Below are positions 4,986-24,661 of a stretch of DNA of 64,000 nucleotides, piece after piece; the first letter of the stretch is position 1, and each line of letters opens with the position of its first letter. This DNA comes from a virus: positions 1-64,000 of the IMG/VR virus record IMGVR_UViG_3300025121_000776, one strand, 5' to 3'. The notes under the pieces were generated by a model that worked only from the letters and a program-made list of their open reading frames with translations, made no database searches and was not told the DNA's origin. A program made the translations under genes and the position numbers.

Positions 4986-5900
4986 ATGAAAAAATACAAA
5001 GTAATATGTTTTATAAATTCAGCAGGAATAAATGTTATTTTAAAAAACATAGAAGACACGATGAATTCAATAAAAAATAACATTAATGTTGAGTTTGGGT
5101 TTTATATATGTACAGATACAGAAGATAGAAAAAAAACAATAGACAACATAGTAAAAAAAAACAATCTTAGTAATGTCGTTATTGAGATTGTAGTTAAAAC
5201 CAAAAGTTGGGCTAAAAACTTTAATGAGTTTTTTATAAAATACAAAGATGACGCCGATTATATTTTATGCTCTCATGATGATTTAATTATAAGAACTTTT
5301 GATTTTTTCAATATTACAATGAATGAAATTAGTGGCCATGAAGATGAAATAGGATGGATTGCTTATACATCTGATTCATATTACAGAATATCAAACATAT
5401 CTGTTTGTCAAACCGCTAGAGAAATGTTTTGCAAAGATAGATTTACTTGGCCAAAAACATACGAATTACATAAAATGGAAACTTCTTATAATAAAGATTA
5501 TTTAGATATGCCCCAAAGAACATGTAAAGTTGCTGGGTTTTTCTTGCACTTAAATTTAATAAAAACAGAAAATTTAGAAAAAATAGGATTGTGTCCAGAA
5601 TGGGGAAATTATACATTATTAACAGATGAACATTGGTCTCTTGCAACTTTGGTAAAAAATATGTGGACAGTTTGGGTTCCTCAAGTTTTTTATGACCACC
5701 CCATTAGAGGAAATGAAAGAGTCTTTGTTGGTATACAAAATCAAGCACAAACAGAATCTCAATTTTATAATTTATGGGGATTTGATTATCAATCACCATT
5801 ATCCGATGAAAAAATAAAAGAAGTATGTAACAAGTTTCAAAACACAAACATTGGGTTTTTTAACGATAAAAATACCTATAACTATCAATATTTAAAATAA
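4986..5900 (+). CDS. Putative GT-A fold glycosyltransferase
   Basis: YILCSHDDLII acidic motif, late D-E-H and DHP motifs; island context. Confidence 0.45.
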   Translation: MKKYKVICFINSAGINVILKNIEDTMNSIKNNINVEFGFYICTDTEDRKKTIDNIVKKNNLSNVVIEIVVKTKSWAKNFNEFFIKYKDDADYILCSHDDLIIRTFDFFNITMNEISGHEDEIGWIAYTSDSYYRISNISVCQTAREMFCKDRFTWPKTYELHKMETSYNKDYLDMPQRTCKVAGFFLHLNLIKTENLEKIGLCPEWGNYTLLTDEHWSLATLVKNMWTVWVPQVFYDHPIRGNERVFVGIQNQAQTESQFYNLWGFDYQSPLSDEKIKEVCNKFQNTNIGFFNDKNTYNYQYLK

Positions 5901-5914
5901 TAAACTTTAAAATT

Positions 5915-6652
5915 ATGAAATTACAATTAGAAAATATCATAGATAAACATATTGGACAAAAATGTATTGTGGCAGCACAAGGACCAAGTCTTAATCAATA
6001 CTTAGATAAATTAAGTTCTTTAAAAGATGTGGGGTATACACTTATTTCATGTAACTCATGGCAAGAATTTCACCCAAGTTGTTCTCCTCATTATTGTGTT
6101 TTGGCCAACAATGTAGAAACATGTAAAAGCAAGCTTGATTTGGTTAATCATCATAACATAACGTTAATTTATGCAGATACTGTTGATTTAGTAGACCAAG
6201 ATTGGTTAGAAAAAAATTTAAAAGTTGACTTTTTACCATACGACCAAAGACATTTTGATGGGAAAGAATGTGTTGATTGCAGAACAAGAGCGGGGTGTGA
6301 AAAATATTTTGACCCAAAACGCTTAACAATACAAGAGCAATTACAAAAATATACTGGATTTGATAAACATTATGATTGCGGTAGCACAGTCGCACTACAT
6401 ATGGTAGCAGTTGCCATTTTAATGGGGTTTTCAGATATTTATCTCACGGGGTTAGATTTTAATTACCGTATTGGATATGCATCAAATCTAAGTAATATTC
6501 CAGTCTCAGATTTAAATCATTTTGATATTTATGGTAAAGGAATTTTAGAAGATATGGAAATTATTGCCAAATCAGCTGAAAAAAAAGGTGTTAAAATATA
6601 TAATTTAAATAAAAATTCACACTGGAAAATTTTTAATTATATTGAAATTTAA
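5915..6652 (+). CDS. DUF115 / Maf-like (MptE-like fold) protein, candidate ulosonate transferase
   Basis: IVAAQGPSLN, ISCN, STVALHMVAVAILMGFSDIYLTGLDF, IYNLN motifs. Confidence 0.7.
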   Translation: MKLQLENIIDKHIGQKCIVAAQGPSLNQYLDKLSSLKDVGYTLISCNSWQEFHPSCSPHYCVLANNVETCKSKLDLVNHHNITLIYADTVDLVDQDWLEKNLKVDFLPYDQRHFDGKECVDCRTRAGCEKYFDPKRLTIQEQLQKYTGFDKHYDCGSTVALHMVAVAILMGFSDIYLTGLDFNYRIGYASNLSNIPVSDLNHFDIYGKGILEDMEIIAKSAEKKGVKIYNLNKNSHWKIFNYIEI

Positions 6653-6653
6653 T

Positions 6654-6684
6654 TTTGAAATTATGTAAATATTTCATATTATTG
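6654..6684 (+). promoter_or_regulatory. Near-consensus Bacteroidota primary-sigma promoter (-33/-7)
   Basis: TTTG 6654-6657, 19-nt spacer, TATTATTG 6677-6684 (1 mismatch to TAnnTTTG), ahead of the 6716 operon. Confidence 0.4.
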
Positions 6685-6715
6685 CAACAGCAAATCTTAA
6701 AAACAAGTTTTACAT

Positions 6716-7510
6716 ATGAAAAAGCATATAAATTTAATTGCATATGACAATTATGAAACAATTGACTCCAAAGAGGCTATTGAAAAATATAGAAAAGAAA
6801 AGATAAATGGGGTGAAAGGGTCAATTGAGTTTATACAAAACATTTTTTTAAAAAAACAAATTGACAAACTAAATGTTTTAGAAATTGGTTCTGGAAACTC
6901 AAAAGTACTATACGCATTAGAAGAACATGCTATATTAAATAGTGGAATAGGTATAGAGGTCAGCAAAAGCAGATTCGAATTTGCAGAAAAGTGGAAGCGT
7001 GACATGAATTTTAATAAAACTACTAATATAAATAAAAATATTTTTGATATAAATTTTGAAAAAATTAAAAATATTGATTTATGTATAGGATTTGATTTAG
7101 TTTTTCAATTTTTTCTTCCAATGGGCGAAAATTTTGATTATAACATTTTAAAAAAAATTTATAATTCATTAAAAACTGATGGGGTTTTAATTCTAGAATT
7201 ATCAAATTTAACTCAAATGAAAAATAAAAAAACATGGGACGAATTTTATGAGCCAGACCCATGGAGATTTTCTTTGTGGAACTGTCAATATGATGAAGAA
7301 AAGGAGTTTTTACAGTGGGACAAATATTTTATTCACAGAACCGAAGCAAAAATAGATAAAACATCAATTGTATTAAAGCAATATTCAAAAAAACAAATAG
7401 AAACACTTCTTAAATCTGTTGGATTTAAAAACATAAGTTTCTGTGGAAATTTAAATGATGACAAGTATGTTGGAAAAGAATTTGAGTTTGTAGTAATGGG
7501 AGAAAAATAA
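6716..7510 (+). CDS. Class I SAM-dependent methyltransferase
   Basis: VLEIGSGNS motif I, GIEVS, LKTDGVLILE. Confidence 0.8.
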   Translation: MKKHINLIAYDNYETIDSKEAIEKYRKEKINGVKGSIEFIQNIFLKKQIDKLNVLEIGSGNSKVLYALEEHAILNSGIGIEVSKSRFEFAEKWKRDMNFNKTTNINKNIFDINFEKIKNIDLCIGFDLVFQFFLPMGENFDYNILKKIYNSLKTDGVLILELSNLTQMKNKKTWDEFYEPDPWRFSLWNCQYDEEKEFLQWDKYFIHRTEAKIDKTSIVLKQYSKKQIETLLKSVGFKNISFCGNLNDDKYVGKEFEFVVMGEK

Positions 7511-8178
7511 TGGTTACTTTAATTTTAGCAAGAGGTGGCAGCAAAAGAGTGCCAAATAAAAACATTTTAAAAATAGGAAAATACCCATTAATAGCATTTC
7601 CAATAATGGCTGCTATAAAACTTGGGCATGACGTCTACGTTTCAACAGACAGTATTAAAATTAGAAATGTTGCAAAAAAATATGGAGCAAAAGTGATTGA
7701 TAGACCACCTCACCTATCAACTAGCTCTTCTTTGGACATAGACGCCTTTAGGCACTTTGTGTCAGAAACAGGAATAATAGAGGATATTTTACATCTTAGA
7801 GCCACAACTCCTCTTGTAAATAATGATGAATTAGAAAAAATTATTTCTTTTTTTCAAAAAAACAAGGATGTTTGCACTTCTTTAAGAACTGCACACGAAT
7901 CATCTGAAACGGCTTATAAGTTTTTTAAAAAAAATGGAATTTATTGGAATGGATTATTTAATAAAAGTGGAGAATATTACAATAAACCAGGTCAAGAATT
8001 GCCAAAAACATTTGTCCCAAATGGATATGCCGATATTGTAAGACCGTTATATTTTATGAAAAACGAAAATTTACATGGCAACAAAATACTTTCTTACATT
8101 ACTGAGTTTGCTCCAGAAGTAGATATTATAAGAGATTTTGAATATTTAAAATTCTATTACAAAAAATATTATGTATAA
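7510..8178 (+). CDS. neuA: Acylneuraminate/ulosonate cytidylyltransferase (NeuA/PseF family)
   Basis: ILARGGSKRVPNKN, VSTDS, RP..L, LRATTPL, NGYADI, EVD...DFE motifs. Confidence 0.85.
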   Translation: MVTLILARGGSKRVPNKNILKIGKYPLIAFPIMAAIKLGHDVYVSTDSIKIRNVAKKYGAKVIDRPPHLSTSSSLDIDAFRHFVSETGIIEDILHLRATTPLVNNDELEKIISFFQKNKDVCTSLRTAHESSETAYKFFKKNGIYWNGLFNKSGEYYNKPGQELPKTFVPNGYADIVRPLYFMKNENLHGNKILSYITEFAPEVDIIRDFEYLKFYYKKYYV

Positions 8179-9499
8179 ATTCACAGAAAAGCCTTTTAAA
8201 ACACAAAGGATAAATACAAAAAACAGAACTATTGTTACTGACATCCCAGCTCAAGATACCATTGATATAATTGAAAAATGTAAACAATTTGAGCCATCAT
8301 CTATGAACAATCAATTGCCAATAGTTTGGGACAGAGCTAAGGATTATCAAATTTTTGATAATTCTGGAAACGTTTGGATTGATTTCACTTCGGGAATTTT
8401 TGTAACAAACGTTGGACATTCGCATCCGAAAGTAAAAGAGGCGATAATAAAAACGGTTGAAAAAGATTTGTTAAACGCATATTATTATCCGACAAAAGAA
8501 CGTGCTGAATTTGGAGAGTTGCTTATAAAAAAAACTGGATTTGAAAAAGTTTTCTTTTTATCTACTGGGTCAGAAGCAGTAGAAGCAGCCATAAAGATGT
8601 CAATTAAATATACAAAAAAGAAAAGAGTTTTATCATTTACGCAATCATTTCATGGCAAAACAATGGGAGCTCAATTGGTTGGAGGAAAGCAAAAAGAAAA
8701 AGAGTGGATTCCAACAAATTCTTATGTAACTCATATTTCATTCCCTTATCCATGGATTTTAGAAGAAAAAAAAATGACTGGTAAAGAGTTTTTTACCCAA
8801 ACATTTGAGAATATAAACCCAAAAGAATTTTCAGCTGTCATAACAGAACCATATCAAGGGTGGTGTGCAGCTTTCCTTCCTAAAGATTATGCCCAAGAAT
8901 TAAGAAAATGGTGTACAAAAAATGAGGTATTGCTTATCGTAGATGAAGTCCAATCTGGGTTTGGAAGAACGGGTAAATTGTTTGCCTATGAACATTTTGA
9001 AATAAAACCAGACATAATAACCTGTGGAAAAGGAATATCTTCAAGTTTGCCAGTTTCAGCAGTTCTTACAAGTTTTGATATTGCAGAGGTTTGTGATTCT
9101 TTGAATAGTACTCATGGTGGAAATCCAATTGGAATTGCAGCTTCCCATGCATCTTTGATGGTTTTATTTGAAGAAAACTTAATCGTTAAATCTAAAACAA
9201 AAGGAGAACTTTTAAATAAGCTTCTTTTGCAATGGAAAAAAGAAATGCCAAATAATGTGACAAAAGTATATTGCAAAGGTTTATTGGCCAGTGTTTTTAT
9301 AGAATCAGAACTTGGTGAAAATGATGTTTTTGTAGATAAGCTAATTGAGGTAGCCATGAGAAAAGGTCTTATGTCTGTAAGAACATGCAGCGGAACATTA
9401 AAAATAGGTCCTCCATTATCTATTCCAGAAGATGCATTAATTGAAGGTGTTGAAATTTTAAAAGAAAGCTTAAAAGAATGTTTAGACATGTTGGTATAG
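8171..9499 (+). CDS. PLP-dependent aminotransferase class III
   Basis: IDFTSGIFVTNVGHSHP, STGSEAVEAA, SFHGKT, DEVQSGFGRTG, GKGIS, STHGGNP. Confidence 0.9.
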   Translation: MYKFTEKPFKTQRINTKNRTIVTDIPAQDTIDIIEKCKQFEPSSMNNQLPIVWDRAKDYQIFDNSGNVWIDFTSGIFVTNVGHSHPKVKEAIIKTVEKDLLNAYYYPTKERAEFGELLIKKTGFEKVFFLSTGSEAVEAAIKMSIKYTKKKRVLSFTQSFHGKTMGAQLVGGKQKEKEWIPTNSYVTHISFPYPWILEEKKMTGKEFFTQTFENINPKEFSAVITEPYQGWCAAFLPKDYAQELRKWCTKNEVLLIVDEVQSGFGRTGKLFAYEHFEIKPDIITCGKGISSSLPVSAVLTSFDIAEVCDSLNSTHGGNPIGIAASHASLMVLFEENLIVKSKTKGELLNKLLLQWKKEMPNNVTKVYCKGLLASVFIESELGENDVFVDKLIEVAMRKGLMSVRTCSGTLKIGPPLSIPEDALIEGVEILKESLKECLDMLV

Positions 9500-9903
9500 T
9501 GGTAAAAGATTTAGAAAAACAATTAATGTTTTATAAAGACTTTTTAGGTTTAGAAATTTATTATGACGAAATTGAGAGCGGCGAATTCTTATCTTTTATA
9601 TTAAATAGTCCTAATTCTAAAGCTAGAATAATAAAATTGGGAAAAAACAAAGAGACAATTGTAGAATTATTAAAATTCTCAAATGTACATTTCCTTAATT
9701 TTTCTAAGAAAACATTATGCAAACAAAATAATATTACCCATTTTGCTTTAACAGTTGGCGGCTTAGATGAGTTGTTTTTGGAATTGTCAGAAAAAAAAGT
9801 TGTCTTTGTAAGTAAGCCAAAAATATCTATTGATGGGAAATGTAAAGTTTGTTTTTGTCGAGATTTTGAAGGTAATTTTATAGAGTTAGTTGAAAAATTA
9901 TGA
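9478..9903 (+). CDS. VOC (glyoxalase/epimerase) family protein
   Basis: RHVGIVVKDLEK..FY...LG, HFAL, FCRDFEGNFIEL; TTG start overlapping the previous stop. Confidence 0.85.
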   Translation: MFRHVGIVVKDLEKQLMFYKDFLGLEIYYDEIESGEFLSFILNSPNSKARIIKLGKNKETIVELLKFSNVHFLNFSKKTLCKQNNITHFALTVGGLDELFLELSEKKVVFVSKPKISIDGKCKVCFCRDFEGNFIELVEKL

Positions 9904-11288
9904 AAATTTTATTAGTAGTCTATGATAATGGGTCTCATATTCATTGGTTTCCGCAGGGTATAGCTTACATTGCAGCTGCTTTAAAAAAAAATCATGAGGT
10001 TAAAATTTACAACCAGGACATACATCATTATCCCGAAGAACATTTAACAAATTATCTAAATGAAAATAAATTTGATTTAATCGGAATAGGAGTTATAGGA
10101 GGGTATTATCAGTATATAAAACTTTTAAAATTATCAAAAGCCATAAACAATTCTATTAATCGACCATATTTTGTAATAGGGGGTCATGGTCCATCTGCCG
10201 ACCCAGAGTATTTTTTAAAAAAAACAAGAGCAGATTTTGTTGTTGTTGGAGAGGGAGAAGAAACAATTGTAGAATTAGCAGAGGAATTAGAAAAAAAAAT
10301 AAAGAAGTTTGAAAATATTGATGGAGTTGCGTTTTGGAAGAAATCTAAGATAGTAATTAATAAGAGAAGACAAGTTGTTAAAAATATTGATTTATTACCA
10401 CTTCCCGCATATGATTTATTTCCTATAGAGCACTATAGACTTTCGCAAGAGCCAAATTCAAGTGGCACTGATTTTGTCATTCCAATTTTAACTGGAAGAG
10501 GTTGTCCGTTTACTTGCAATTTTTGTTATAGAATGGATAAAGGCTTTAGAGTTAGAAACAATAATGCTATTATCGAAGAAATTAAATTCTTGAAAAAAAA
10601 ATATAATATAAATTATTTTTCTTTTAGCGATGAGCTTTTAATGTCTTCTAAAAAAAGAGTTATTAGCTTATGTGAAGATATCATAAAAGAAAATTTAAAT
10701 ATTAAATGGAATTGCAATGGAAGGTTAAATTATGCAACCAAAGATGTTGTTGAAATTATGAAGAAGGCTGGGTGTGTTTTTATTAATTATGGAATTGAGT
10801 GTTATGATGATGAAATTTTGAAAATAATGAATAAAAAACTAACAGTAGAGCAAATAAAAACTGGAATTGAAAACACATTAGAAGTTGGAATAAGTCCTGG
10901 CTTTAATATAATATTTGGAAATATTAATGAGGATACAAATACTTTAAATAAAGGTGTTGAATTTTTACTAGAGCATGATGATTGTTCACAAATAAGGACA
11001 ATTAGACCAGTTACTCCCTATCCAGGAAGCCCTTTGTATTATTATGCAATAGAAAATGGCATGCTAAAAGATTGTGAAGATTTTTATGAACATAAACACA
11101 CGAATTCAGATTTATTAAGTGTAAATTTTACAAAATTAACGGATGAAGAGTTTTATAAAGCTATTTATCAAGCAAATGAAAAATTGCTAAACAATTATAT
11201 AGAAAAAACTAAAGAGAAAAATAAAAAAACATTAGACTCTTTATATAAAAGTAAAAATGCAGAATTCAGAGGATTTAGAAAAGTATAA
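9900..11288 (+). CDS. Cobalamin-binding radical SAM enzyme
   Basis: N-terminal B12-binding domain (GGHGPS, VVGEGEET), GRGCPFTCNFC CxxxCxxC motif, PYPGSPLY. Confidence 0.9.
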   Translation: MKILLVVYDNGSHIHWFPQGIAYIAAALKKNHEVKIYNQDIHHYPEEHLTNYLNENKFDLIGIGVIGGYYQYIKLLKLSKAINNSINRPYFVIGGHGPSADPEYFLKKTRADFVVVGEGEETIVELAEELEKKIKKFENIDGVAFWKKSKIVINKRRQVVKNIDLLPLPAYDLFPIEHYRLSQEPNSSGTDFVIPILTGRGCPFTCNFCYRMDKGFRVRNNNAIIEEIKFLKKKYNINYFSFSDELLMSSKKRVISLCEDIIKENLNIKWNCNGRLNYATKDVVEIMKKAGCVFINYGIECYDDEILKIMNKKLTVEQIKTGIENTLEVGISPGFNIIFGNINEDTNTLNKGVEFLLEHDDCSQIRTIRPVTPYPGSPLYYYAIENGMLKDCEDFYEHKHTNSDLLSVNFTKLTDEEFYKAIYQANEKLLNNYIEKTKEKNKKTLDSLYKSKNAEFRGFRKV

Positions 11289-11327
11289 TTAATAAAACAA
11301 GAAAAAAAAGAAAGATAAAAAAATAGC

Positions 11328-11930
11328 ATGGATAATTTAAAAACAATAGATACTAGATTATCTGACCACATTAGAATGGTTATAGATATTATGAAAAATG
11401 ATAAAATAACTAAAACAATTAGTTCCACTGCTGAAACTATTATTAAAGCTTTAAAAACAAAAAAAAAGGTATTAATATGCGGTAACGGCGGCTCTGCTGC
11501 CGATGCTCAACATATTGCCGCTGAGTTATCTGGCAGATTTAGATTTGATAGAAAACCTTTGTTTGCTGAAGCATTACACACTAATAGCTCTTACTTAACT
11601 GCGGTTGCTAATGATTATGGTTATGAGTTTATATATTCTAGACTATTAGAATGCATGAGTAATTCTGGTGATATACTAATTGGAATTTCCACTTCTGGAA
11701 ATTCTAAGAACATTATAAATGCTATGATTGAAGCTAGAAAACAAAATATGATTATCGTTTCATTAACTGGTGAAACTTTTAATGAAATGGATAAGTTAGC
11801 TGATTATTCAATTAAAATTCCATCTACCGATATTGCCAGAATTCAAGAAGGACATATATTGGCTGGCCATATAATATGCGAGATAATAGAAAATAAACTT
11901 TTTAATAATGAATACAAACGGACTAACTAA
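11328..11930 (+). CDS. gmhA: Sedoheptulose-7-phosphate isomerase (SIS domain)
   Basis: ICGNGGSAADAQHIAAEL, TAVANDYG, ISTSGNS, IQEGH motifs. Confidence 0.9.
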   Translation: MDNLKTIDTRLSDHIRMVIDIMKNDKITKTISSTAETIIKALKTKKKVLICGNGGSAADAQHIAAELSGRFRFDRKPLFAEALHTNSSYLTAVANDYGYEFIYSRLLECMSNSGDILIGISTSGNSKNIINAMIEARKQNMIIVSLTGETFNEMDKLADYSIKIPSTDIARIQEGHILAGHIICEIIENKLFNNEYKRTN

Positions 11931-12705
11931 CATAAACATCGAGCTAACTAATAAATGCAACAAAAGTTGCTGGATGTGTGGAAGAAGAAAACTAGAAAAG
12001 AAAATGCCAGATTTCAAAAACTTTTACAACAAAGAGATGGATTTCTCTTTGTTGGAAAAAATCTCTAAAGAAACTCCTTTTGGAATCACCGTTCAACTCC
12101 ACAATAACGGAGAACCACTTCTATATTCAAGATTTGGAGATGCTGTGAATTTATTTAATAACCAAATAGTAAATATTGTAACAAATGGAAAATTGCTTTT
12201 AAAAAAATATGATGAAATAGTTGAAAACTTAGACACTTTATCTATTTCCGTTTTTGAGAATGATATAGAAAGTGAAAAACAATTTGAAATAATTAAAAAA
12301 TTTTTAAAGAAAAAAGGCAGCAAAAGCCCCTATACGACTCTTAGGCTTGTTGGTAATGTCGAGAGACAAAAATATGAAAACCTAAATACTCAAATAATAA
12401 GTAGGACTCTCCATTCTCCAATGGGAAGTTTTGAATATAGAAGAGACCCAACAGTTCCAGAAACGGGTATTTGTCTAGATTTTCTTAATCATCTAGCAAT
12501 TAATTTTGAAGGTAATGTTTCTATTTGCGTAAGATTCGACCCTAATAAACTTGGAGTCATAGGAAATGTTAAAGAAAATACCCTGCAAGAAATATGGAAC
12601 AGCGAAAAAAGAATGGAGTGGAAATTATCCCACATCAAAGGGGAAAGAAACAAAGTTCCACTTTGTTCTTATTGTAAATTTTGGGGAATACCCACTGGAA
12701 ATTAA
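11908..12705 (+). CDS. Radical SAM protein with SPASM/twitch domain
   Basis: ELTNKCNKSCWMC, GEPLL, C-terminal C..LAINFEGNVSIC...GNV..TLQEIWN...CSYC. Confidence 0.85.
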   Translation: MNTNGLTNINIELTNKCNKSCWMCGRRKLEKKMPDFKNFYNKEMDFSLLEKISKETPFGITVQLHNNGEPLLYSRFGDAVNLFNNQIVNIVTNGKLLLKKYDEIVENLDTLSISVFENDIESEKQFEIIKKFLKKKGSKSPYTTLRLVGNVERQKYENLNTQIISRTLHSPMGSFEYRRDPTVPETGICLDFLNHLAINFEGNVSICVRFDPNKLGVIGNVKENTLQEIWNSEKRMEWKLSHIKGERNKVPLCSYCKFWGIPTGN

Positions 12706-12715
12706 AAAAGAGTTG

Positions 12716-12759
12716 ATTTATAATTTTTTTTTAATTATCTTTAAAAAAAAATTATAAAT
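12716..12759. repeat. Perfect 19-bp AT-only inverted repeat just upstream of neuB
   Basis: ATTTATAATTTTTTTTTAA (12716-12734) / TTAAAAAAAAATTATAAAT (12741-12759), 6-nt loop; ATG at 12761. Confidence 0.75.
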
Positions 12760-12760
12760 T

Positions 12761-13585
12761 ATGAAAAATAAAGTGTTTTTAATTGCAGAAATTGGACTGA
12801 ATCACAACGGGGATATAGATTTAGCCAAAAAACTAATTACTAAAGCAAAAAATTCGGGAGCTGACGCTGTTAAATTCCAAAAAAGAACAATAGATTCAGT
12901 CTATTCAAAAGAAGAGCTAGATAAACCAAGAGAATCTCCTTGGGGAACAACAACAAGACAGCAAAAGGAAGGTTTGGAATTTTCTATTGAACAATATATT
13001 GAGCTCGAAAAATATTCCAAAGACCTTTCTCTGGATTTTATAGTTTCATGTTGGGATGAAAATAGTTTAGATTTAATAGAAAAAAACTTAAATGTAAAAT
13101 ATCATAAAATTGCTTCTGCTATGTTAACTGACAAAAGCTTTTTAGACAAAATAAATGAAACTAAAAAACCAGTTATTGTTTCAGTTGGAATGAGTACAGA
13201 AGAAGAAATTAAAAACGCAGTAAATCAATTATATAATGTCGAATACATTTTATCTTGCACTAGTACATACCCTACAAAAAAAGAAGAAGTTAATTTAAAA
13301 GCTATTTCGTCACTTAAAAATATGTTTCCAGATAAAAAAATAGGATTTTCGAACCACTACAACGGCCTTATGGCTTGCTTTGGAGCTACAGCTTTTGGTG
13401 CTGAATGTATTGAGTTTCACATTACGTTAGATAGAACTATGTATGGTTCTGACCAAGCAGCCTCAGTAGAGCGCTCTGAAGACTTAATTGAAGGTATAAG
13501 GACAATGCAGAAACTTTTAGGTGATGGAGTAATAAAGATATATGATTCAGAAATTCCAATTTTACAAAAATTAAGAAAAAAATAA
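12761..13585 (+). CDS. neuB: NeuB-family PEP-dependent ulosonate synthase, short form without C-terminal SAF/AFP-like domain
   Basis: IAEIGLNHNGD, ADAVKFQKR, KIASA, SCTSTYP, GFSNH, IEFHITLD...GSDQAAS. Confidence 0.9.
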   Translation: MKNKVFLIAEIGLNHNGDIDLAKKLITKAKNSGADAVKFQKRTIDSVYSKEELDKPRESPWGTTTRQQKEGLEFSIEQYIELEKYSKDLSLDFIVSCWDENSLDLIEKNLNVKYHKIASAMLTDKSFLDKINETKKPVIVSVGMSTEEEIKNAVNQLYNVEYILSCTSTYPTKKEEVNLKAISSLKNMFPDKKIGFSNHYNGLMACFGATAFGAECIEFHITLDRTMYGSDQAASVERSEDLIEGIRTMQKLLGDGVIKIYDSEIPILQKLRKK

Positions 13586-13589
13586 TGTA

Positions 13590-15071
13590 ATGAAAAAGAT
13601 TTTAGTTATTATAGGACAACACAGAAGCGGAACCTCTATGTTGTCTGGTTCGCTAGAATTAGCAGGTGGATGGTTGGGAATAAATTACCAATTTGAAGCT
13701 GACCAGTATAATCAGAAAGGATATTTTGAAAACAAATGGACTGATGAGTTTAACAATAGAGTGCTTAGAAGGCTTCACTGTGACTGGCATCATGTTACAC
13801 ATATTCCAGACAATTGGTTAGACCATGGATTTAACGATTTATACAACGAATTAATAGAGTATATAGCTTATGATTTAAGCCATTTACCAGAAAACAAATT
13901 TTATGTAATTAAAGACCCTAGAATTTCTTTGATTTTACCAATATACCTTAAAGCATTTGACAGTTTAAATATTGATGCCAAATTTATCTTTTCAGACAGA
14001 GAAACAGAGGAAATAGTAAATTCAATTTTTCACAGAGATGGTTTAGAAAAAAACATGGTAAGAAATGCAGTTATTAATCACAGACATTATGCTAAAAAAC
14101 ATTTAAAAGAAGGCGACTATATATGGACAAATACATTTTCAAATATGTTTTATAGACCAGATAAATTTTTAAAATTCATCAAAGAAAAATTTAATATTCC
14201 TATGGATGTTTCCCCAGAAGCATTAAAGAATATAAGTCAATTTGTAGATGTAAATTTAAAAAATCATAATAAAGGGAAAAATTGTAAAGTAATCGCAACA
14301 TATTTTGGACCTAGAAGAACTCAAATTTCATATCACAAAGAAAGTAATGTAAAGGGAATTATTGATAAAGTCTCTGGAGAAGAATCAAGCCTACGAGCCA
14401 TAAAAGAGCTTATTGAAAATGAAAGAAAAATTGATTCTGGAGTATTCATGGATACAATAATCGTAAATCATGATATATCTGAATTAGTAGAAATTCCAAA
14501 AGCTAAAAGTTATTTAGAGGAAATTGACGGTACTCCAACTCTAAATGGTGTGATAAAAATCATAAATAGACCATGGAATAAAGGAATTGGGGGAAGTTTT
14601 GGCTCGTTTGATTATGCGTTTCAGCATTTTAAAAATGATTATGAATATTGGTTTTTCACTGAAGATAATGTTATTCAAATAGAAAACAATTACTTTAAGG
14701 CGTGTATAGAACAATTAAAAGAAGATATCACTATTGGATTTGTTTGTGCATATAGATATACAACACTTGCTGAAAATAAACATGAAAAATCTCATTGCCA
14801 TGGTGGATGTGGAGCAACTCATATTGACAAACTAAACATAATTAATAAAGAATTAGGACATTTGCCTTATTTTGAGTTACCATATACAACTCAAATGACA
14901 CAATATGCCAAAAATGAATCTGCTTTTAATTTTGTAAGTGGACAATGGTATGGCAAATTTGAAGAAATTGGCGAAGTTAATTTTACAAATGCATATATTC
15001 AAGCAGGATATAAATTAAAAGATATTAATTTTGATTTAAAACTTTGTCGTTATTATCTTGATTATTATTAA
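13590..15071 (+). CDS. Sulfotransferase-family domain fused to a GT-A-like domain
   Basis: GQHRSGTSML 5'-PSB-like loop, KDPRISL, R...E...S; C-terminal half paralogous to 15093..15842. Confidence 0.65.
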   Translation: MKKILVIIGQHRSGTSMLSGSLELAGGWLGINYQFEADQYNQKGYFENKWTDEFNNRVLRRLHCDWHHVTHIPDNWLDHGFNDLYNELIEYIAYDLSHLPENKFYVIKDPRISLILPIYLKAFDSLNIDAKFIFSDRETEEIVNSIFHRDGLEKNMVRNAVINHRHYAKKHLKEGDYIWTNTFSNMFYRPDKFLKFIKEKFNIPMDVSPEALKNISQFVDVNLKNHNKGKNCKVIATYFGPRRTQISYHKESNVKGIIDKVSGEESSLRAIKELIENERKIDSGVFMDTIIVNHDISELVEIPKAKSYLEEIDGTPTLNGVIKIINRPWNKGIGGSFGSFDYAFQHFKNDYEYWFFTEDNVIQIENNYFKACIEQLKEDITIGFVCAYRYTTLAENKHEKSHCHGGCGATHIDKLNIINKELGHLPYFELPYTTQMTQYAKNESAFNFVSGQWYGKFEEIGEVNFTNAYIQAGYKLKDINFDLKLCRYYLDYY

Positions 15072-15092: not shown

Positions 15093-15842
15093 ATGAAAGT
15101 TTGTAAAGTAATAACAACTGTTTTTTTAGGTAGAAAAATTAGGGAAGATACCACAAGGTGTGGCGTTCCAAGAGGATTGTTTAATCATTCTCAAAATTTT
15201 CCTACCCCACAATCTGTGATTGAATTATTAAAACTAACAATTATTTTAGAAGAAAAATCTTATTCAGGAACAGAAACTGATATTGTTATAGTAAACAATG
15301 ATGTTGATTTTAAAGAAGGAAATGAGTTTTTAAAATCTATTGATGGTAAAAAAATTAGCAATGGAATAATACGAGTTTTTTTTCGAGAAAATTTTGGTCG
15401 CTCTTTTGGAGGCTACAATTATGCTTTTAATATTTTAAAAAATGAGTATGATTACTTTATTTTTACAGAAGACGATATAATAATCCACCGTACAAATTAT
15501 GCAATTAGAGCAATAGAGTTGTTTAATAGCGAAAAAAACATAGGTGCTGTAGCATACCAATCAACATCTATTCAGCACTATAATAAAGTAGCCTCACAAG
15601 AGCACATTCACATACACGGGGGAGTTTGTCTCTCAAGTACAAAAGTTTTAAAAAAGGTGTGTGGTAAATTGGGAAGTTTACCACATTGCAAACAAGGTGA
15701 TTCACAATCGTATGAAGATATAATTGTAAATGGGGAGATAGCATTTACAAATGAAATTTATAAATTAGGTTATGACTTAGTGAATGTCGATGAAAAATTT
15801 TATGACTATGCTTATGATTATATGAGAAACATAATTTTATAA
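15093..15842 (+). CDS. Putative GT-A-like protein, paralog of the C-terminal domain of 13590..15071
   Basis: Shared CKVI.T.F, IVN.D, G.SFG...YAF, F.FTED(D/N), H.HGG, GE..FTN motifs. Confidence 0.5.
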   Translation: MKVCKVITTVFLGRKIREDTTRCGVPRGLFNHSQNFPTPQSVIELLKLTIILEEKSYSGTETDIVIVNNDVDFKEGNEFLKSIDGKKISNGIIRVFFRENFGRSFGGYNYAFNILKNEYDYFIFTEDDIIIHRTNYAIRAIELFNSEKNIGAVAYQSTSIQHYNKVASQEHIHIHGGVCLSSTKVLKKVCGKLGSLPHCKQGDSQSYEDIIVNGEIAFTNEIYKLGYDLVNVDEKFYDYAYDYMRNIIL

Positions 15843-17179: not shown

Positions 17180-18373
17180 ATGAAAAAACCAGAAAATAAA
17201 ATACCTTTATTTAAGGTGTATATGAGCGAAGACGTTATTAAACCTCTATCAGAAGTTTTAATGTCTGGATATATAGGACAGGGGGCAAAAGTAGAAGAAT
17301 TTGAAAAAATTTTAAAAGAATACCTGCAAAATTATTTAGTTGTAACAACAAATGCTGGAACTTCTGCTGCGCATTTAGCATTAAGATTGTTAAAAAATCC
17401 AGCTGAAAATACTGAATCATATTTTGGAACAGCGTTTATTTCAAAAAAATGGTCTGGAATAAATGATGGCGATGAGGTTCTTGCGACTCCGCTGACCTGC
17501 ACGGCATCAAATTTTCCAGCTTTAGCAAACGGAATGAGAATAAAGTGGGTTGATGTAGATTCAAATACTTGTAACATGGATTTAGAAGATTTGGCAAGAA
17601 AAATAACTCACAAAACAAAGATTATAATTCCAGTTCACTGGGGCGGATACCCAAACGATTTAGACAAAATAAAAGAAATTCAAGAAAAAGCAGAACATAT
17701 GTTTGGATTTAAACCAGCTGTCATAGAAGATTGTGCCCACGCATTTGGCTCAACTTATAAAAACAAAAAAATTGGAAACCATGGCAATGCTTGTTTCTTC
17801 AGCTTTCAAGCAATAAAACATTTAACTACTGGGGATGGCGGAGCATTAGTCTTACCGCACAAAGAATTATATGATAGAGCAAAATTATTAAGATGGTATG
17901 GAATTGATAGAGAAACGAATTCTAAAGATTTTAGATGTGAAGATGATATCGCAGAATGGGGATACAAATTTCATATGAATGATATTAATGCAACTATTGG
18001 AATTCACAATTTTCCACACGCATTAGAGGTTGTAAAAAAACATCAAGAAAATGCTAATTTTTATAATGAAAATTTAAAAAATGTTCCTGGAGTCACATTA
18101 ATGGAAAACAGCCCAGACAGAAAATCATCCTATTGGATTTATACAATAAAAGTAGAAAAACGTGATATGTTTATGGATTATATGAAAGAATGTAACATTA
18201 TGGTTAGTAGGGTTCACGAAAGAAATGATAAACATTCTTGTGTTAAAGAATTCAAAGCTATTCTACCAAATTTAGATAAACTTACACAGGAGATGATTTG
18301 TATTCCAGTAGGATGGTGGATTACATCAGAAGAAAGGCAATATATTGTTGATTGTATTAAAAAAGGGTGGTAA
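17180..18373 (+). CDS. DegT/DnrJ/EryC1/StrS sugar aminotransferase
   Basis: NAGTSAAHLA, PVHWGG, IEDCAHAFG, SFQAIKHLTTGDGG with the catalytic Lys present. Confidence 0.9.
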   Translation: MKKPENKIPLFKVYMSEDVIKPLSEVLMSGYIGQGAKVEEFEKILKEYLQNYLVVTTNAGTSAAHLALRLLKNPAENTESYFGTAFISKKWSGINDGDEVLATPLTCTASNFPALANGMRIKWVDVDSNTCNMDLEDLARKITHKTKIIIPVHWGGYPNDLDKIKEIQEKAEHMFGFKPAVIEDCAHAFGSTYKNKKIGNHGNACFFSFQAIKHLTTGDGGALVLPHKELYDRAKLLRWYGIDRETNSKDFRCEDDIAEWGYKFHMNDINATIGIHNFPHALEVVKKHQENANFYNENLKNVPGVTLMENSPDRKSSYWIYTIKVEKRDMFMDYMKECNIMVSRVHERNDKHSCVKEFKAILPNLDKLTQEMICIPVGWWITSEERQYIVDCIKKGW

Positions 18374-18389
18374 TTAAATAAAAAATAAA

Positions 18390-18926
18390 GTGGAACAATT
18401 TACTGGATTAAAGCACCCAATACAAAATTATCCGTTTAGACAAGCTTTAGGCGTGGTAAAATACTTGATACCATATATAAAAAATAAATCTGTATGTGAT
18501 TTAGGTTGTGGATGTGGAGACATCCTTGTGGAAATGCAGAAACATGCCAAGTCAATAGTTGGAATTGAAAATGATTTAAGATTTAAACAAGCAATAGAGG
18601 ATGTTGAAGAAGAAAGGAAATTTATTATATGGGGCGATTTGTTTGAAGTGGATATTCCAAAATGTGACGTTTACTTTATTTGGATATCATCAGATAAAAA
18701 GATGAATGAAAAAATAATAAACCTATTAGAAGAAGGTGTTATAATAATTGACCCTACAATTAGATTGGATTTATTTTCAGGAAATAAAAATTTAGAATTG
18801 ATTGATACAATTGAGTGCAGTTATGATGAAAGTGAGTATATCGGATTTGATGATATTATTATTGACGGAAATCCATTCCCCTCAATTGGAGAGCGCAAAT
18901 TCAAAATTTATAAAAAAATTTCCTAA
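18390..18926 (+). CDS. Class I SAM-dependent methyltransferase
   Basis: VCDLGCGCGD motif I, VGIEND; GTG start. Confidence 0.7.
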   Translation: MEQFTGLKHPIQNYPFRQALGVVKYLIPYIKNKSVCDLGCGCGDILVEMQKHAKSIVGIENDLRFKQAIEDVEEERKFIIWGDLFEVDIPKCDVYFIWISSDKKMNEKIINLLEEGVIIIDPTIRLDLFSGNKNLELIDTIECSYDESEYIGFDDIIIDGNPFPSIGERKFKIYKKIS

Positions 18927-18928
18927 GT

Positions 18929-20882
18929 GTGTCAAAAAAATACTCAATACAACTAGTTCAGTTTAATAACAAATATGGTTCACAAGTTTACCTACCATAT
19001 AGCATTGGGATTTTATCTAGTTATGCTTTAGCAGATAAGGAAATTTTAGACAAATTTGAATTTAAAGAATTTATTTCTATTATAGAAAGTGTTCCCGACT
19101 TAGTAAAAAAAATAGGACATTCTTGGAATTTCTTGTTATAATTGGAATTGGGAATTAAGTTTAAAATTGGCAGAAGAAGTAAGAAAAACAAATCCCAATT
19201 GTTTAATAATTATGGGTGGTCCACAAATTCCTAATGAAATTTCTAATTTTTTTGAACTACACCCATTTGCTGATATTGCTGTGCATGGAGAGGGAGAAGT
19301 GACTTTTCATGAAATATTAAAAAAATATTCTTCAGACCTAAGCAATCTTAAAAAAATACCTGGAACCACATTTTATGACAGAAAAAATAATAAAGTTATA
19401 AAATCTTTACACAGGGATATAATTTCTGACCTTAATATTATACCCTCACCTTACTTAAGTGGAATATTTGACAAGTTGTTGGATGATAGAGAATATGCAT
19501 GGATGATAACCTGGGAAACTAATCGTGGATGTCCGTTTAAATGTACTTTTTGCGATTGGGGTTCGGCCACAGAATCTAAAGTTAGAAAATTTGATAACGA
19601 TAGATTATTAAAAGAATTGGATTATTTTTCAGAAAAAAAAGTTGAACTTATATTTGGAGCAGATGCTAATTTTGGCATATTCAAAAGAGATAAAGAATAC
19701 GCAATAAGAATGGCCGACAACAAAGAGAAGTGTGGATATCCAAAACAATTTAGAGTTTGTTTTACAAAGAACTCTACAGATAAAGTTTTTGAGTTATCTC
19801 AAATTTTTGATAAAGCTAGAATGAACAAAGGGGTGTCAATAAGTATGCAGTCCTTAAACACACAAACTTTACAAAACATCCAAAGGACAAATATAAAAAT
19901 GGATTTTTTCAATGAGTTGCAAAAAAGATATAATGCGCATGGGCTTACTACATATACTGAATTGATTTTACCACTTCCAGGAGAAACTTATGAATCATTT
20001 ATTGATGGAATAGATTTACTTCTTGACAATTCACAACATTCTGGAATTGTTGTTTATAATTGTGTGGTAATGCCAAACGCAAAGATGGGAAATGCGCAAT
20101 ACAAAGAGAAATTCGGCTTAAAAACAACAAAAATCCCCATCTTCCAAGCTCACTCTGATTTTAAAAATTCATTTGATGTAATAGAAAAAGAAGAACTTGT
20201 TATTGAAACTAAAACTATGAATAAGTTTGATTATATAAAGTCTTTTAAGTATAGTTGGATAGTTCAGAGCATGCATATGTTGGGGACTTTGCAAATTGTT
20301 GCCATTGTATTTAGATATCATTTTGGAATTAAATATTCAGAATTTTATAAAGGAATTTTAGAATATGGAAAATTAAATCCCCAGACTATAATTGGAAAGG
20401 AAATTAAAAAAATTGATGAAATATTAAATGGAGTATTGGGTGGAAATGGGTTTGAACAAGAGATTGAAGAGTTTGAATCTATAGTTTGGCCACCAGAAGA
20501 AGCTACATATTTAAGAGTTTCTGAAAATATTGACAATTTTTATTCAGAAATAGGAGATTTTCTGTACAAAAAGTATCACAACCTTTTTAAAGACAATGAA
20601 ATTCTAAACGATATATTAAAATATCAAAAAATAATAAATGTAAGATTTGACAACCAATCTAATAAAACAATTTCTTTATCTTATGACATTCATAATTTTT
20701 TTGAAGATTGTAGAGTGGGAATTTTTAATGAACTCGAAAAAAAAGAAGTCAGCATCTCAATTTTTCCAAGCACATCATTTAAAAACAAAAAAGACTTTTC
20801 AAGAGAAGTCGTTTGGTATGGGAGAAAAGGAGGAAAATTTTTCCACTCAGCAAAAGAAATAACAAAAGTTAACACAATATGA
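18929..20882 (+). pseudogene. Cobalamin-binding radical SAM enzyme split by a frameshift near 19113-19116
   Basis: 18929..19141 encodes the B12-domain start (YLPYSIGIL); the +1 frame from 19116 reads DILGISCYNWNWELSLKLAEE into the 19167..20882 ORF with NRGCPFKCTFC. Confidence 0.75.
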
Positions 20883-21673: not shown

Positions 21674-21714
21674 AAATAATTTTTATTATATTCTATAAAA
21701 ATTATTTTTAATAT
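21667..21714. repeat. Perfect 20-bp AT-only inverted repeat spanning the GT10 stop and GT11 start
   Basis: ATATTAAAAATAATTTTTAT (21667-21686) / ATAAAAATTATTTTTAATAT (21695-21714), 8-nt loop; includes TAA 21671-21673 and the AT of ATG 21713. Confidence 0.75.
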
Positions 21715-22501
21715 GGATAAAGTATCTGCAAAACTTAAGGGCGGATTGTGTAATTACATGTTTCAAATAGCATGTGCGTATTCTTATTCTATAAAAAACA
21801 ACAAAGAGTGTTTTTTTACAACAGATGATTCTGTGGTAAGGCACAATCATGTAGATAATTATAAAAACAATGTTTTAAATAATGTAGTTTTTCTTAACAC
21901 CTACAACTTCAATTCTTTTGCAAAGTATAATGAGCCTCATTATTACTATACAGAAATTCCTAGTTTTAATGATAATGTATATTTAGATGGAGATTTTCAA
22001 AGTGAAAAACACTTTAAGAAAAATGAAAAAGAAATTAAAACACTTTTTTCTTACCCCAACGAAGTAGTAAGTAAAATTGTAAACAAATGGGAGCATTTAC
22101 TAAAAAAAGAAACATGTTCTATTCACATAAGAAGAGGAGATTATCTAAAATATCAAGATGCTTATACAATTTTGGGTTTAGATTATTATTTAAAAGCGTC
22201 TGAACAAATGCCAGAAAATAGTATTTTTCTCATTTTTTCCGATGATTTACAATGGTGTAAAGACAATTTTCCAGAAATTCCAGAAAAATTTATTTTTATA
22301 GAGTCACAAAAGGATTATGAAGATTTATTGCTCATGTCTTTGTGTAAAAATAACATAATTTCAAATTCATCATTTTCTTGGTGGGCAGCCTGGCTTAACT
22401 CAAATGAAAATAAAATTGTCATAGCTCCAAATAAATGGTTTAGTGTTAAGTCTTCTTATAATACTAAAGATTTGTATTGTGATAATTGGATAAAATTATA
22501 A
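21713..22501 (+). CDS. GT11 alpha-1,2-fucosyl/colitosyltransferase
   Basis: LKGGLCNYMFQ, YLDGDFQSEKHF, SIHIRRGDY, FLIFSDD..WC, IISNSSFSWWAAWL. Confidence 0.85.
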   Translation: MDKVSAKLKGGLCNYMFQIACAYSYSIKNNKECFFTTDDSVVRHNHVDNYKNNVLNNVVFLNTYNFNSFAKYNEPHYYYTEIPSFNDNVYLDGDFQSEKHFKKNEKEIKTLFSYPNEVVSKIVNKWEHLLKKETCSIHIRRGDYLKYQDAYTILGLDYYLKASEQMPENSIFLIFSDDLQWCKDNFPEIPEKFIFIESQKDYEDLLLMSLCKNNIISNSSFSWWAAWLNSNENKIVIAPNKWFSVKSSYNTKDLYCDNWIKL

Positions 22502-22510
22502 ATTAAATAT

Positions 22511-23434
22511 ATGAAAGCAATAGTAACAGGCTCAAATGGGCTTTTAGGCTCAGCGTTAAAAAACAATTTAGGAGAGGGACATATTTATCACACTAGACAA
22601 AATTGTGATTTATTAAGAACAAACGAGGTAAATTCTTATTTCTCAGAATTAAGCAGTAAAAATCCCCCAGATACAATTATACATTGTGCAGCAAGAGTTG
22701 GGGGCGTACAAGCCAATATGGATAATAATAAAGGCTTTTTCTTAGAAAATCTTTATATAAATAATGCCATAATTGGCGCAGCAGTTGTTTATGATTATAA
22801 AAATGTTGTAAATATTTTATCTACCTGTATTTTTCCAGACAAAGAGGTTATATATCCACTGACCGCAGACCAAATTGATAACGGGACTCCCCACCCATCA
22901 AATCATGGCTATTCTTATTCAAAAAGACTTTTATATCATTCCACAAGATACTGCAGAGAGGTTACGGGAAACAATTGGATTTCTATTATTCCAAATAATA
23001 TTTATGGAGAAAATGATAACTTTAATTTAGAAAAAGGTCACCTGGTTCCTGCTTTAATAAGAAAAGCGCATGAGGCATCTATTTCTGGGGAAGATTTTAT
23101 TGTATGGGGAGATGGAACTCCATTGAGACAATTTTTATATTCAGATGACCTGGCAAAAGTTATTTTGTGGGCTATTGAAAATTGGGATTCTGGCGTTCCT
23201 ATGATGGCTGTAAACGAAACTGAGTATTCTATTAAACAAATCGTAGATGTCATCGCAAATCGCTTTAAAATAAGCCAGGATAGAATTAAATATGATATTA
23301 CCAAACCAAAAGGACAATTTAGAAAACCAGCCAAGTCAGATATCCCAAAAGAATTCAAACTTACAGGAATTGAAGAAGGGTTAAACAAAACAATAGATTG
23401 GTATTTAAAAAACATAAATAACTTTAGAAAATAA
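22511..23434 (+). CDS. fcl: GDP-L-fucose synthase / ColC-like epimerase-reductase
   Basis: TGSNGLLGSA, HCAARVGG...N, STCIFP, YSYSKR, PNNIYG..DNF, HLVPALIRK, WGDGTPLRQFLYSDD. Confidence 0.85.
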   Translation: MKAIVTGSNGLLGSALKNNLGEGHIYHTRQNCDLLRTNEVNSYFSELSSKNPPDTIIHCAARVGGVQANMDNNKGFFLENLYINNAIIGAAVVYDYKNVVNILSTCIFPDKEVIYPLTADQIDNGTPHPSNHGYSYSKRLLYHSTRYCREVTGNNWISIIPNNIYGENDNFNLEKGHLVPALIRKAHEASISGEDFIVWGDGTPLRQFLYSDDLAKVILWAIENWDSGVPMMAVNETEYSIKQIVDVIANRFKISQDRIKYDITKPKGQFRKPAKSDIPKEFKLTGIEEGLNKTIDWYLKNINNFRK

Positions 23435-23435
23435 T

Positions 23436-24602: not shown

Positions 24603-24661
24603 TTTTATCTTTAATTTATTATTTTCTGTTGCTATATTTTAATTGTTTAAACATAAAATAT

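Follow-up and report, generated by a model that had tools for sequence, protein, structure and literature searches.

The first 64 kb of the 186,855-base IMG/VR virus contig IMGVR_UViG_3300025121_000776 (this 64 kb stretch is called the window; CheckV completeness of the contig ∼57%) carries a run of nine co-oriented genes on the + strand, between positions 5915 and 13585. In order, they encode a DUF115/MptE-like protein, a class I methyltransferase, a cytidylyltransferase (CMP-transferase, for cytidine monophosphate), a class III aminotransferase (AT-III), a VOC-superfamily protein, a cobalamin-domain radical SAM enzyme (B12-rSAM), a GmhA-type isomerase, a second, BtrN-like radical SAM enzyme and a short NeuB-family synthase. 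A preliminary description of this DNA had listed the same nine open reading frames (ORFs), all of which we found again; its nine domain calls were each borne out by Pfam, and its five stop/start overlaps measure 1, 8, 22, 4 and 23 nucleotides at 7510, 8171, 9478, 9900 and 11908. No terminator-like site was found on the + strand between 4800 and 15500, promoter-like matches carry no information at 28% GC, and Rfam and tRNA scans of the window returned no matches. The operon proteins missed all NCBIfam equivalog cut-offs, GmhA coming nearest, and all operon enzymes are therefore divergent. With a probability of about 60%, we propose from the sequence that the nine genes form a co-transcribed operon through which a modified ulosonic (sialic-acid-like) sugar is built, tailored, activated and passed to an acceptor. 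An unusual set of this kind, outside the canonical neuraminic, legionaminic and pseudaminic acid (Neu/Leg/Pse) routes, is what the preliminary description had put forward, and this part of it stands.

The last gene of the run (12761..13585, +) encodes a 274-amino-acid (aa) ulosonate synthase of the NeuB family that lacks an SAF domain. The protein matched NeuB (PF03102) with 216.2 bits against a cut-off of 22.1, and its SNH and EFH metal-binding histidines align to SDH and EKH of PseI (8h2c). It fell under the equivalog cut-offs of both NeuB_NnaB (TIGR03569, 230.5 versus 399.65) and PseI (TIGR03586, 169.9 versus 340.25). There was no SAF match in the NeuB protein, in the whole 187 kb contig or in G001, a related 291 kb genome that is 91% complete. 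A recurrent 101-aa protein was considered as a detached SAF domain and rejected: it had no SAF match, and its relatives were only the small proteins 9iqw and 1xpj, which we take to be HAD-like (a literature search on 9IQW gave nothing relevant). The cytidylyltransferase (7510..8178, +) belongs to the NeuA/PseF/KdsB family and is a predicted CMP-ulosonate synthetase. It reached 78.4 bits with CTP_transf_3 (cut-off 22.6), 79.2 bits with the PseF equivalog (cut-off 205.7), and fell far under the cut-offs of the KdsB models.

Viral contigs contain 58 relatives of the short NeuB, and metagenomes thousands, many of them from Tara samples. A related NeuB was found in no cultured phage; the only deposited phages found to have one are a marine virus obtained from a single cell and an uncultured phage of 484 kb. 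When the ORFs of 61 NeuB loci were clustered into families, NeuB and the CMP-transferase proved to be surrounded by a combinatorial toolkit: an SDR in 35 of the 61 loci, a xylose-isomerase-like TIM barrel in 25, DUF115 in 21, the AT-III and VOC pair in 19, GmhA in 13 and a class IV aminotransferase (AT-IV), never together with AT-III, in 11. A small HAD-like protein was present in 35 loci (with the short NeuB in 35 of 60 related loci). The commonest order among the relatives is DUF115, methyltransferase, CMP-transferase, AT-III, VOC, TIM, SDR, GmhA and NeuB. The window is a variant of this order in which B12-rSAM takes the place of the TIM-SDR pair, absent from the entire 187 kb contig, and a BtrN-like gene stands between GmhA and NeuB.

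In the NeuB tree, the window is sister to G001 (support 100/99) and lies outside the GmhA-linked NeuB clade. NeuB, the BtrN-like enzyme and the DUF115 protein are closest to their counterparts in G001 (81, 67 and 69% identity, respectively), whereas the CMP-transferase, AT-III, VOC, GmhA and the methyltransferase are closest to another lineage (41-62% identity). The operon is therefore a recombinant mosaic. Its components nevertheless recur together in distant phages: in L123, L125 and L128, the CMP-transferase, AT-III, VOC, NeuB, B12-rSAM, BtrN-like radical SAM enzyme and methyltransferase, 30-47% identical to those of the window, lie directly upstream of a terminase and a P22-like portal. 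The sister locus L127 has the same enzyme set, the terminase/portal flanks being annotated in the other three only. It follows that all operon genes except GmhA and DUF115 form an old recurrent unit. Two further kinds of loci were seen among the relatives. L060 (a 9.2 kb contig of a Pelagibacter metagenome-assembled genome, MAG) and L061 (a 14 kb contig of a Neomarinimicrobiota MAG) are short and of low GC, carry the phage-type NeuB module with 63-70% identity, and look like phage DNA binned into bacterial MAGs. L035, L036 and L027 have two or three divergent NeuB paralogs per island, each with its own SDR or CMP-transferase, which suggests more than one ulosonic acid per phage.

AT-III (8171..9499, +) is an omega-type, pyridoxal phosphate (PLP)-dependent enzyme by its Pfam match (Aminotran_3, 283.9 bits versus a cut-off of 30.5). 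The PLP-lysine K287, compared in 16 homologs, and the DEVQSGFGRTG motif are invariant; cellular homologs occur in Fluviispira, Pigmentibacter and Parachlamydiaceae. We know of no aminotransferase of class III or IV that acts on sialic-like sugars. The VOC protein (9478..9903, +; Pfam Glyoxalase_4/Glyoxalase) is a predicted metalloenzyme with invariant residues H4, E63, H88 and E136/E139, a His/Glu set that we take to be the usual VOC metal-binding pattern, and it may act as an epimerase or isomerase adjacent to a carbonyl. The two genes co-occur in 19/19 loci, VOC always following AT-III, including in the distant P22-portal phages. Moreover, natural fusions join the CMP-transferase to AT-III (P0198, P0210) and AT-III to VOC. 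The fusions indicate that the CMP-transferase, AT-III and VOC act in one pathway, near the activation step.

The second radical SAM gene (11908..12705, +) encodes a 265-aa protein that matches Radical_SAM and SPASM in Pfam and appears, by sequence and fold, to be a 'twitch' dehydrogenase resembling BtrN, which would turn a secondary alcohol into a ketone. Its cysteines are the CxxxCxxC motif at 17-24 and, apart from these, only Cys189, 207, 253 and 256; all seven are invariant in 28 homologs. BtrN was the best sequence match in the PDB (1.9e-9), with CxxxCxxC, GEPLL and three auxiliary cysteines aligned. BtrN also ranked first when the AlphaFold2 (AF2) model (mean confidence, pLDDT, 93.6) was compared to known structures with Foldseek (1.3e-10; template modelling score, TM, 0.60/0.64), followed by BlsE, SpeY and, lower down, DesII. 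The latter three act on sugars or cyclitols. The enzyme is like BtrN of the butirosin (2-deoxystreptamine) BtrN/BtrS system, and like SpeY, in being a compact (∼250-270 aa) radical SAM protein with one auxiliary four-cysteine cluster and an aminotransferase partner. It differs from BtrN in its low identity (∼18-20% in the structural alignment) and in its partner, which is of class III here (class IV in relatives) and not of the DegT type. Since it stands among NeuB and CMP-transferase genes, its substrate would be a sugar acid or a precursor of one rather than an aminocyclitol.

The BtrN-like family is small: 51 cluster representatives were found at E ≤ 1e-30 among 1.84 billion, an alignment-based scan of viral contigs gave 15 loci, and at E ≤ 1e-20 there was none in 251 sampled genomes of the order to which a Magnetovibrio MAG belongs. 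We compared its distribution with that of the SDR in the 40 loci that have AT-III or AT-IV. SDR alone was present in 27, the BtrN-like enzyme alone in 12, both in none and neither in one (Fisher p = 2e-9, uncorrected for relatedness). This complementarity fits one alcohol oxidant per aminotransferase. In aminoglycoside pathways, BtrN and NAD-dependent dehydrogenases are alternatives in a parallel way, the dehydrogenase taking the place of the radical SAM enzyme in some lineages. One metagenomic relative (P0260, 518 aa) carries an N-terminal GIY-YIG nuclease domain, which may reflect a homing-endonuclease insertion or a merged gene call.

The SDR and TIM versions of the module were mostly retrieved alongside marine-looking relatives. 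By comparison, the DNA of the present operon is found in groundwater metagenome assemblies from two studies, none of the listed sequencing runs being an RNA data set, and the presence of two oxygen-sensitive radical SAM enzymes fits a groundwater phage.

B12-rSAM (9900..11288, +) is a class B radical SAM enzyme with a B12-binding domain (PF02310, 61.9 bits), a Radical_SAM domain (PF04055, 71 bits) and the CxxxCxxC motif CPFTCNFC at 202-209. A search of the PDB with the family profile retrieved AprD4, OxsB, MgmA, TsrM, CysS and TokK, all of them distant (E 1e-9 to 1e-24), and NCBIfam equivalogs were far under their cut-offs. The family itself is tightly conserved (62% mean column identity). Orthologs with 48-62% identity are present on nine phage contigs of 38-56% GC, adjoining NeuB in seven of the nine, and 18 of the 20 phage loci with B12-rSAM have NeuB close by. 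Orthologs with 53-56% identity also occur in 13 of the 251 alphaproteobacterial genomes of the Magnetovibrio order. Among the bacterial loci that were fetched, 9 of 11 have NeuB, CMP-transferases, aminotransferases and methyltransferases within 10 kb, and three of the four annotated loci encode TPR-GT41 proteins of the FlmG flagellin-glycosyltransferase type. GenK and Fom3 are cobalamin-dependent radical SAM C-methylases of sugars or CMP-linked substrates. B12-rSAM shares the B12-binding domain and radical SAM core with such class B C-methylases and with AprD4; unlike the known class B enzymes, its family is specifically linked to NeuB clusters.

The solved relatives of this enzyme differ in their chemistry, MgmA, TsrM, CysS and TokK being methylases and AprD4 a dehydratase. 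AprD4 was its best solved relative (9e-17 with the single sequence, 7e-24 with the family profile), and an AprD4-like B12-rSAM would dehydrate a vicinal diol to a deoxy-keto or deoxy-aldehyde compound that AT-III would then aminate, yielding an amino-deoxy ulosonic acid. The usual substrates of class III aminotransferases are aldehydes or terminal ketones, as for the aminoglycoside 6'-aminotransferases, and B12-rSAM and an aminotransferase are found together in 12 of the 20 loci. However, the match to AprD4 spans the radical SAM core only (163-398), while OxsB and TsrM are the matches to the cobalamin domain at the N terminus; AprD4 is not known to use cobalamin. Two minimal loci, L076 and L079, consist of B12-rSAM, a methyltransferase, a HAD-like protein, NeuB and a CMP-transferase; as they contain neither an aminotransferase nor a reductase partner, they suit a self-contained methylation better. 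Furthermore, with the BtrN-like oxidant present, a second ketone-forming enzyme would be redundant. We consider the dehydration unlikely; the lack of a partner reductase in the minimal loci leads us to favour C-methylation.

We also considered B12-rSAM as a stand-in for the TIM-barrel protein, as it occupies the TIM/SDR slot of the window and never occurs with TIM in phage loci. This was ruled out by bacterial loci that have both. One of them, L113 (G244:C17:69000-88999), contains NeuB, a TylF-like methyltransferase, two B12-rSAM paralogs, AT-III (43%), SDR (51%), a CMP-transferase and TIM, and comes closer to the phage toolkit than any other cellular locus. In others, a NeuB-SAF-TIM fusion lies beside B12-rSAM: the 748-aa alphaproteobacterial NeuB at L110:2356-4602 is a CBS-NeuB-SAF-TIM (xylose-isomerase-like) fusion that adjoins FlmG-like TPR-GT41 proteins and a B12-rSAM ortholog. 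L103, L111 and L112 also have a 748-aa NeuB (the domain fusion was scanned in L110 only). The phage TIM and the fused bacterial TIM domain have no direct similarity (BLASTP E 0.066), so the fusion is evidence at the level of the family only.

The class I SAM-dependent methyltransferase (6716..7510, +; Pfam Methyltransf_31 and related families) has orthologs with 41-43% identity at the same position in L003, L015 and L055, and may N- or O-methylate the sugar. Upstream of it, the first gene of the operon (5915..6652, +) encodes a 245-aa DUF115/MptE-like protein, a predicted CMP-ulosonate transferase. Its Pfam matches were MptE-like (PF01973, 44.6 bits) and, under the 25-bit cut-off, CST-I (21.8 bits), and its only sequence matches in the PDB were the Cst-I/II sialyltransferases. 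In a Foldseek comparison, the AF2 model (pLDDT 85) retrieved CstII (2e-7), Maf 5mu5 (5e-6) and archaeal MptE (1e-4). The model matches the GT42 fold of Cst-II/Cst-I over their whole length (TM ∼0.5), while of the 632-aa Maf it matches only the core (TM by target 0.23); the Maf N- and C-terminal domains are absent. A GPS motif (G23-P24-S25) is invariant in 11 homologs. As modelled, the protein is thus a miniature single-domain Cst-like transferase and not a full Maf. It resembles Cst-I/Cst-II in fold and size and Maf in its core, with a CMP-ulosonate as the presumed donor, but identity is 14-20%. It also lacks a flagellin context: flagellin did not turn up in scans of the window or in family and query searches of the contig. 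The preliminary description had a Maf-like enzyme pass the sugar to a protein; as stated, this is not supported by the structure comparison, since a single-domain Cst-like architecture does not imply transfer to protein.

The isomerase gene (11328..11930, +) encodes a GmhA-type (SIS_2) sedoheptulose-7-phosphate isomerase that appears authentic by its sequence. It scored 188.8 bits with TIGR00441, slightly under the cut-off of 209.45, is ∼50% identical to Campylobacter jejuni GmhA (1tk9) and keeps the motifs GNGGSAADAQH, STSG and QEGH. In the 13 loci that contain it, GmhA immediately precedes NeuB or is separated from it by a single inserted gene. Its occurrence together with radical SAM genes is confined to this window. 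The 'wiring' of GmhA to the ulosonic-acid genes that had been proposed is therefore window-specific, as no other locus of the radical-SAM type has a GmhA, nor does G001.

NeuC/Epimerase_2 (PF02350) had no match in the 187 kb contig or in G001, although 11 of 14 reference genomes matched in a control search. Nor was there a PfkB kinase of the HldE type (PF00294), a GmhB-type phosphatase (TIGR01656) or a GT9 heptosyltransferase (PF01075) in the contig or G001. The absence of NeuC, GmhB and HldE noted earlier thus extends beyond the window. The further remark that PseC- and LegC-like enzymes are not recognisable in the window holds for the operon itself but not for the DNA downstream of it, where there are DegT-family aminotransferases (17180-18373, 23436-24602) and NAD-dependent epimerase/dehydratases (22511-23434, 24629-25693).

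These findings bear on the substrate of NeuB. One possibility is that GmhA converts sedoheptulose-7-phosphate to D-glycero-D-manno-heptose-7-phosphate and that NeuB condenses this with phosphoenolpyruvate (PEP) to a 10-carbon (C10) ulosonate (10-phosphate). Tailoring and CMP activation would follow. NeuB and Kdn-9-phosphate synthases accept the manno configuration, which this heptose has, GmhA appears authentic by its motifs and its position next to NeuB is repeated, and the phage has no HldE, GmhB or heptosyltransferase to use the heptose otherwise. A small HAD-like protein is present in 10 of the 13 GmhA loci. In addition, CMP-linked C10 ulosonic acids have been detected in Magnetospirillum by mass spectrometry (10.64898/2026.04.20.719630), in a 2026 preprint that mentions neither radical SAM enzymes nor C-methylation. 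On the other hand, GmhA is found in only 13 of 61 NeuB loci, and the present phage has no HAD-like phosphatase to take off the terminal phosphate. The sister position of the window NeuB to that of the GmhA-less G001 means that NeuB does not track GmhA. Overall, we think this route improbable. Of the non-canonical aldoses suggested in the preliminary description, a sugar aminated or C-methylated by way of the radical SAM, VOC and aminotransferase enzymes has the better support, and the heptose-7-phosphate route is not favoured. A product backbone of more than nine carbons, whether through GmhA-derived heptose-7-phosphate and NeuB, through methylation of a terminal carbon by B12-rSAM, or through both, is a less remote prospect, though still a doubtful one.

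The best-supported product of the operon is a CMP-activated, amino-substituted, probably methylated ulosonic acid. From the gene families, cofactor motifs, folds, linkage, fusions and recurrence observed here, we infer the following pathway, including its substrates and acceptor, the sequence of its steps, where amination takes place and what B12-rSAM does. The SAF-less NeuB would condense PEP with an aldose or aldose phosphate. The BtrN-like enzyme (an NAD-dependent SDR in most related phage modules) would then turn one secondary hydroxyl into a ketone, VOC would epimerise or isomerise adjacent to that ketone, and AT-III would turn the ketone into an amine. B12-rSAM would alter an unactivated carbon, most likely by C-methylation, and the class I methyltransferase would add an N- or O-methyl group. 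Finally, the cytidylyltransferase would form the CMP-sugar and the Cst-like transferase would attach it to an acceptor that the neighbouring GT2, GT10 and GT11 enzymes assemble. GmhA may be a lineage-specific add-on that raises the supply of heptose-7-phosphate. Two observations speak for a feed from GmhA into NeuB: the two genes adjoin in the 13 loci, and no other heptose-using enzyme is encoded. That GmhA would be an accessory supply gene is argued by its absence from the other radical-SAM-type loci and G001 and by the decoupled NeuB phylogeny.

Several observations weigh against this pathway. The phage lacks both an aldose-forming enzyme (of the NeuC, PseG or LegG type) and a small HAD-like phosphatase, so the host must supply something, and GmhA has no explained role in a phage without HldE, GmhB and a heptosyltransferase unless it feeds NeuB. 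Over the catalytic core, the closest solved relative of B12-rSAM is AprD4, a dehydratase and not a methylase. The statistics of the SDR/BtrN-like complementarity ignore shared ancestry, and three loci that have both the BtrN-like enzyme and an SDR lack an aminotransferase. In view of these three loci, oxidation need not always lead to amination; an oxidation followed by a reduction, with net epimerisation, would fit them.

To our knowledge, all characterised routes to sialic-like sugars use the same few enzyme types. The proposed pathway is like those for N-acetylneuraminic acid (NeuC/B/A), legionaminic acid (LegB/C/H/G/I/F) and pseudaminic acid (PseB/C/H/G/I/F) in that a NeuB-family synthase, a CTP_transf_3 protein and a dedicated transferase are encoded together. 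In contrast to them, the operon has no NeuC, LegG, PseG, nucleotide-sugar 4,6-dehydratase, DegT, acetyltransferase or SAF domain, and the tailoring falls to AT-III, VOC and two radical SAM enzymes. The Kdn-9-phosphate route is represented by BT1714/BT1713 of Bacteroides thetaiotaomicron and by animal NANS. GmhA and the small HAD-like protein of related loci hint at a similar sugar-phosphate logic; this phage, however, has no HAD-like phosphatase, and the amination and radical tailoring are without a counterpart in that route.

Sialic-acid-like sugars shape the recognition of cells and viruses by phages, immune systems and lectins. The relatives of the operon in dozens of phage contigs and some alphaproteobacteria point to an uncharacterised branch of ulosonic acid tailoring, with oxidation by an SDR or a BtrN-like enzyme, amination and a tightly conserved cobalamin radical SAM step. 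The operon thereby offers candidate genes for unexplained amino- and higher-carbon ulosonic acids. If its product does have a backbone of more than nine carbons, these would be the first genes for CMP-linked C10 ulosonic acids of the Magnetospirillum type, and phages would spread them. Literature searches returned no description of phage NeuB pathways, nor of radical SAM enzymes linked to nonulosonic acids. The phage carries the whole kit, including a miniature sialyltransferase-like enzyme, and may re-coat its host or its own particles.

The contig is that of an uncultured groundwater jumbo phage, and the operon lies inside a hypervariable glycan island. The phage-borne nature of the genes, as first described, is confirmed by the virus record, a baseplate wedge protein (41250-43151) and phrog_1745 (25747-27306, outside the island and without a Pfam family); the latter two identify the source as a tailed phage with a myovirus-type (T4-like) baseplate. 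GC is 27-31% from end to end of the window. The island occupies ∼25 kb upstream of the baseplate genes and, because it starts 159 bases from the contig end, is possibly incomplete. All sizeable ORFs from 159 to ∼25693 are on the + strand, and those that could be assigned by Pfam or the atlas all encode glycosyltransferases or sugar-metabolism proteins: several GT2, two GT10 and one GT11, a Gmd/ColD-like/Fcl-like set, two DegT-family proteins and a third radical SAM protein. The ORFs at 13590-15071, 15093-15842 and 18390-18926 have no Pfam family.

We asked whether the sugar might decorate virion proteins (capsid, tail or fibres) in the cytoplasm and not a glycan of the host envelope. Mycobacteriophages decorate virion proteins with simpler glycans. 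The 29 ORFs between 159 and 27306 include no Pfam flippase, polymerase, ABC exporter or polyprenyl-phosphate transferase family, the island adjoins structural genes, and the cassette abuts the terminase and portal in the P22-portal phages; in bacteria, the presence of FlmG-type proteins in the counterpart islands suggests protein glycosylation. However, host lipid carrier and export systems could serve the phage, and the transferase, without the extra domains of Maf, agrees in size and fold with Cst-I/II, enzymes that sialylate lipo-oligosaccharide. Hypervariable islands of glycosyltransferase and sugar-synthesis genes beside tail/baseplate genes, described in marine T4-like pelagimyophages and cyanomyophages, have also been read in pelagimyophages as modifying the host O-antigen (PMC7029224). 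The present island resembles these 'LPS gene' islands as a block of sugar genes beside the baseplate genes of a large myophage. A term search of the same paper (PMC7029224) for sialic, neuraminate or Kdo genes found none, and no NeuB/ulosonic pathway was found described there. Sugar-gene islands of large marine myophages are already published. The operon itself is real, recurrent and biochemically uncharacterised. Taken by itself, decoration of the virion falls somewhat short of an even chance; we regard virion proteins and host envelope glycans as about equally likely acceptors.

The operon is flanked by further genes of the island. Immediately upstream, u304 (4986..5900, +) is a divergent GT2-fold glycosyltransferase by the atlas (feature score 0.98; structure TM 0.68 to GT2 clusters) without a Pfam match. 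Its 70% ortholog adjoins the DUF115 gene in L055, and u304 probably belongs to the same glycan assembly line. Downstream, a 493-aa protein (13590..15071, +) starts 4 nucleotides after NeuB and has no Pfam or NCBIfam match; its N-terminal half gave a weak sulfotransferase-like lead (atlas score 0.86). The two ORFs directly after NeuB, 13590-15071 and 15093-15842, are paralogs with ∼31% identity. The third radical SAM protein of the island (19167-20882, 571 aa, CxxxCxxC at 122-129) is matched in G001 by an ortholog of 73% identity at the equivalent position (L002:13148-15118); the bacterial locus L109 contains a weak relative. Further along, 21713-25693 encodes in series a GT11 fucosyltransferase-like protein, an Fcl-like reductase, a DegT-fold protein and a GDP-mannose 4,6-dehydratase, and relatives of the last three accompany NeuB in more than 40 of the 61 phage loci. 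Between the island and the structural genes, on the - strand, the ORF at 27293-28582 encodes a 429-aa protein in which weak zinc-ribbon/treble-clef and DUF723 matches recur.

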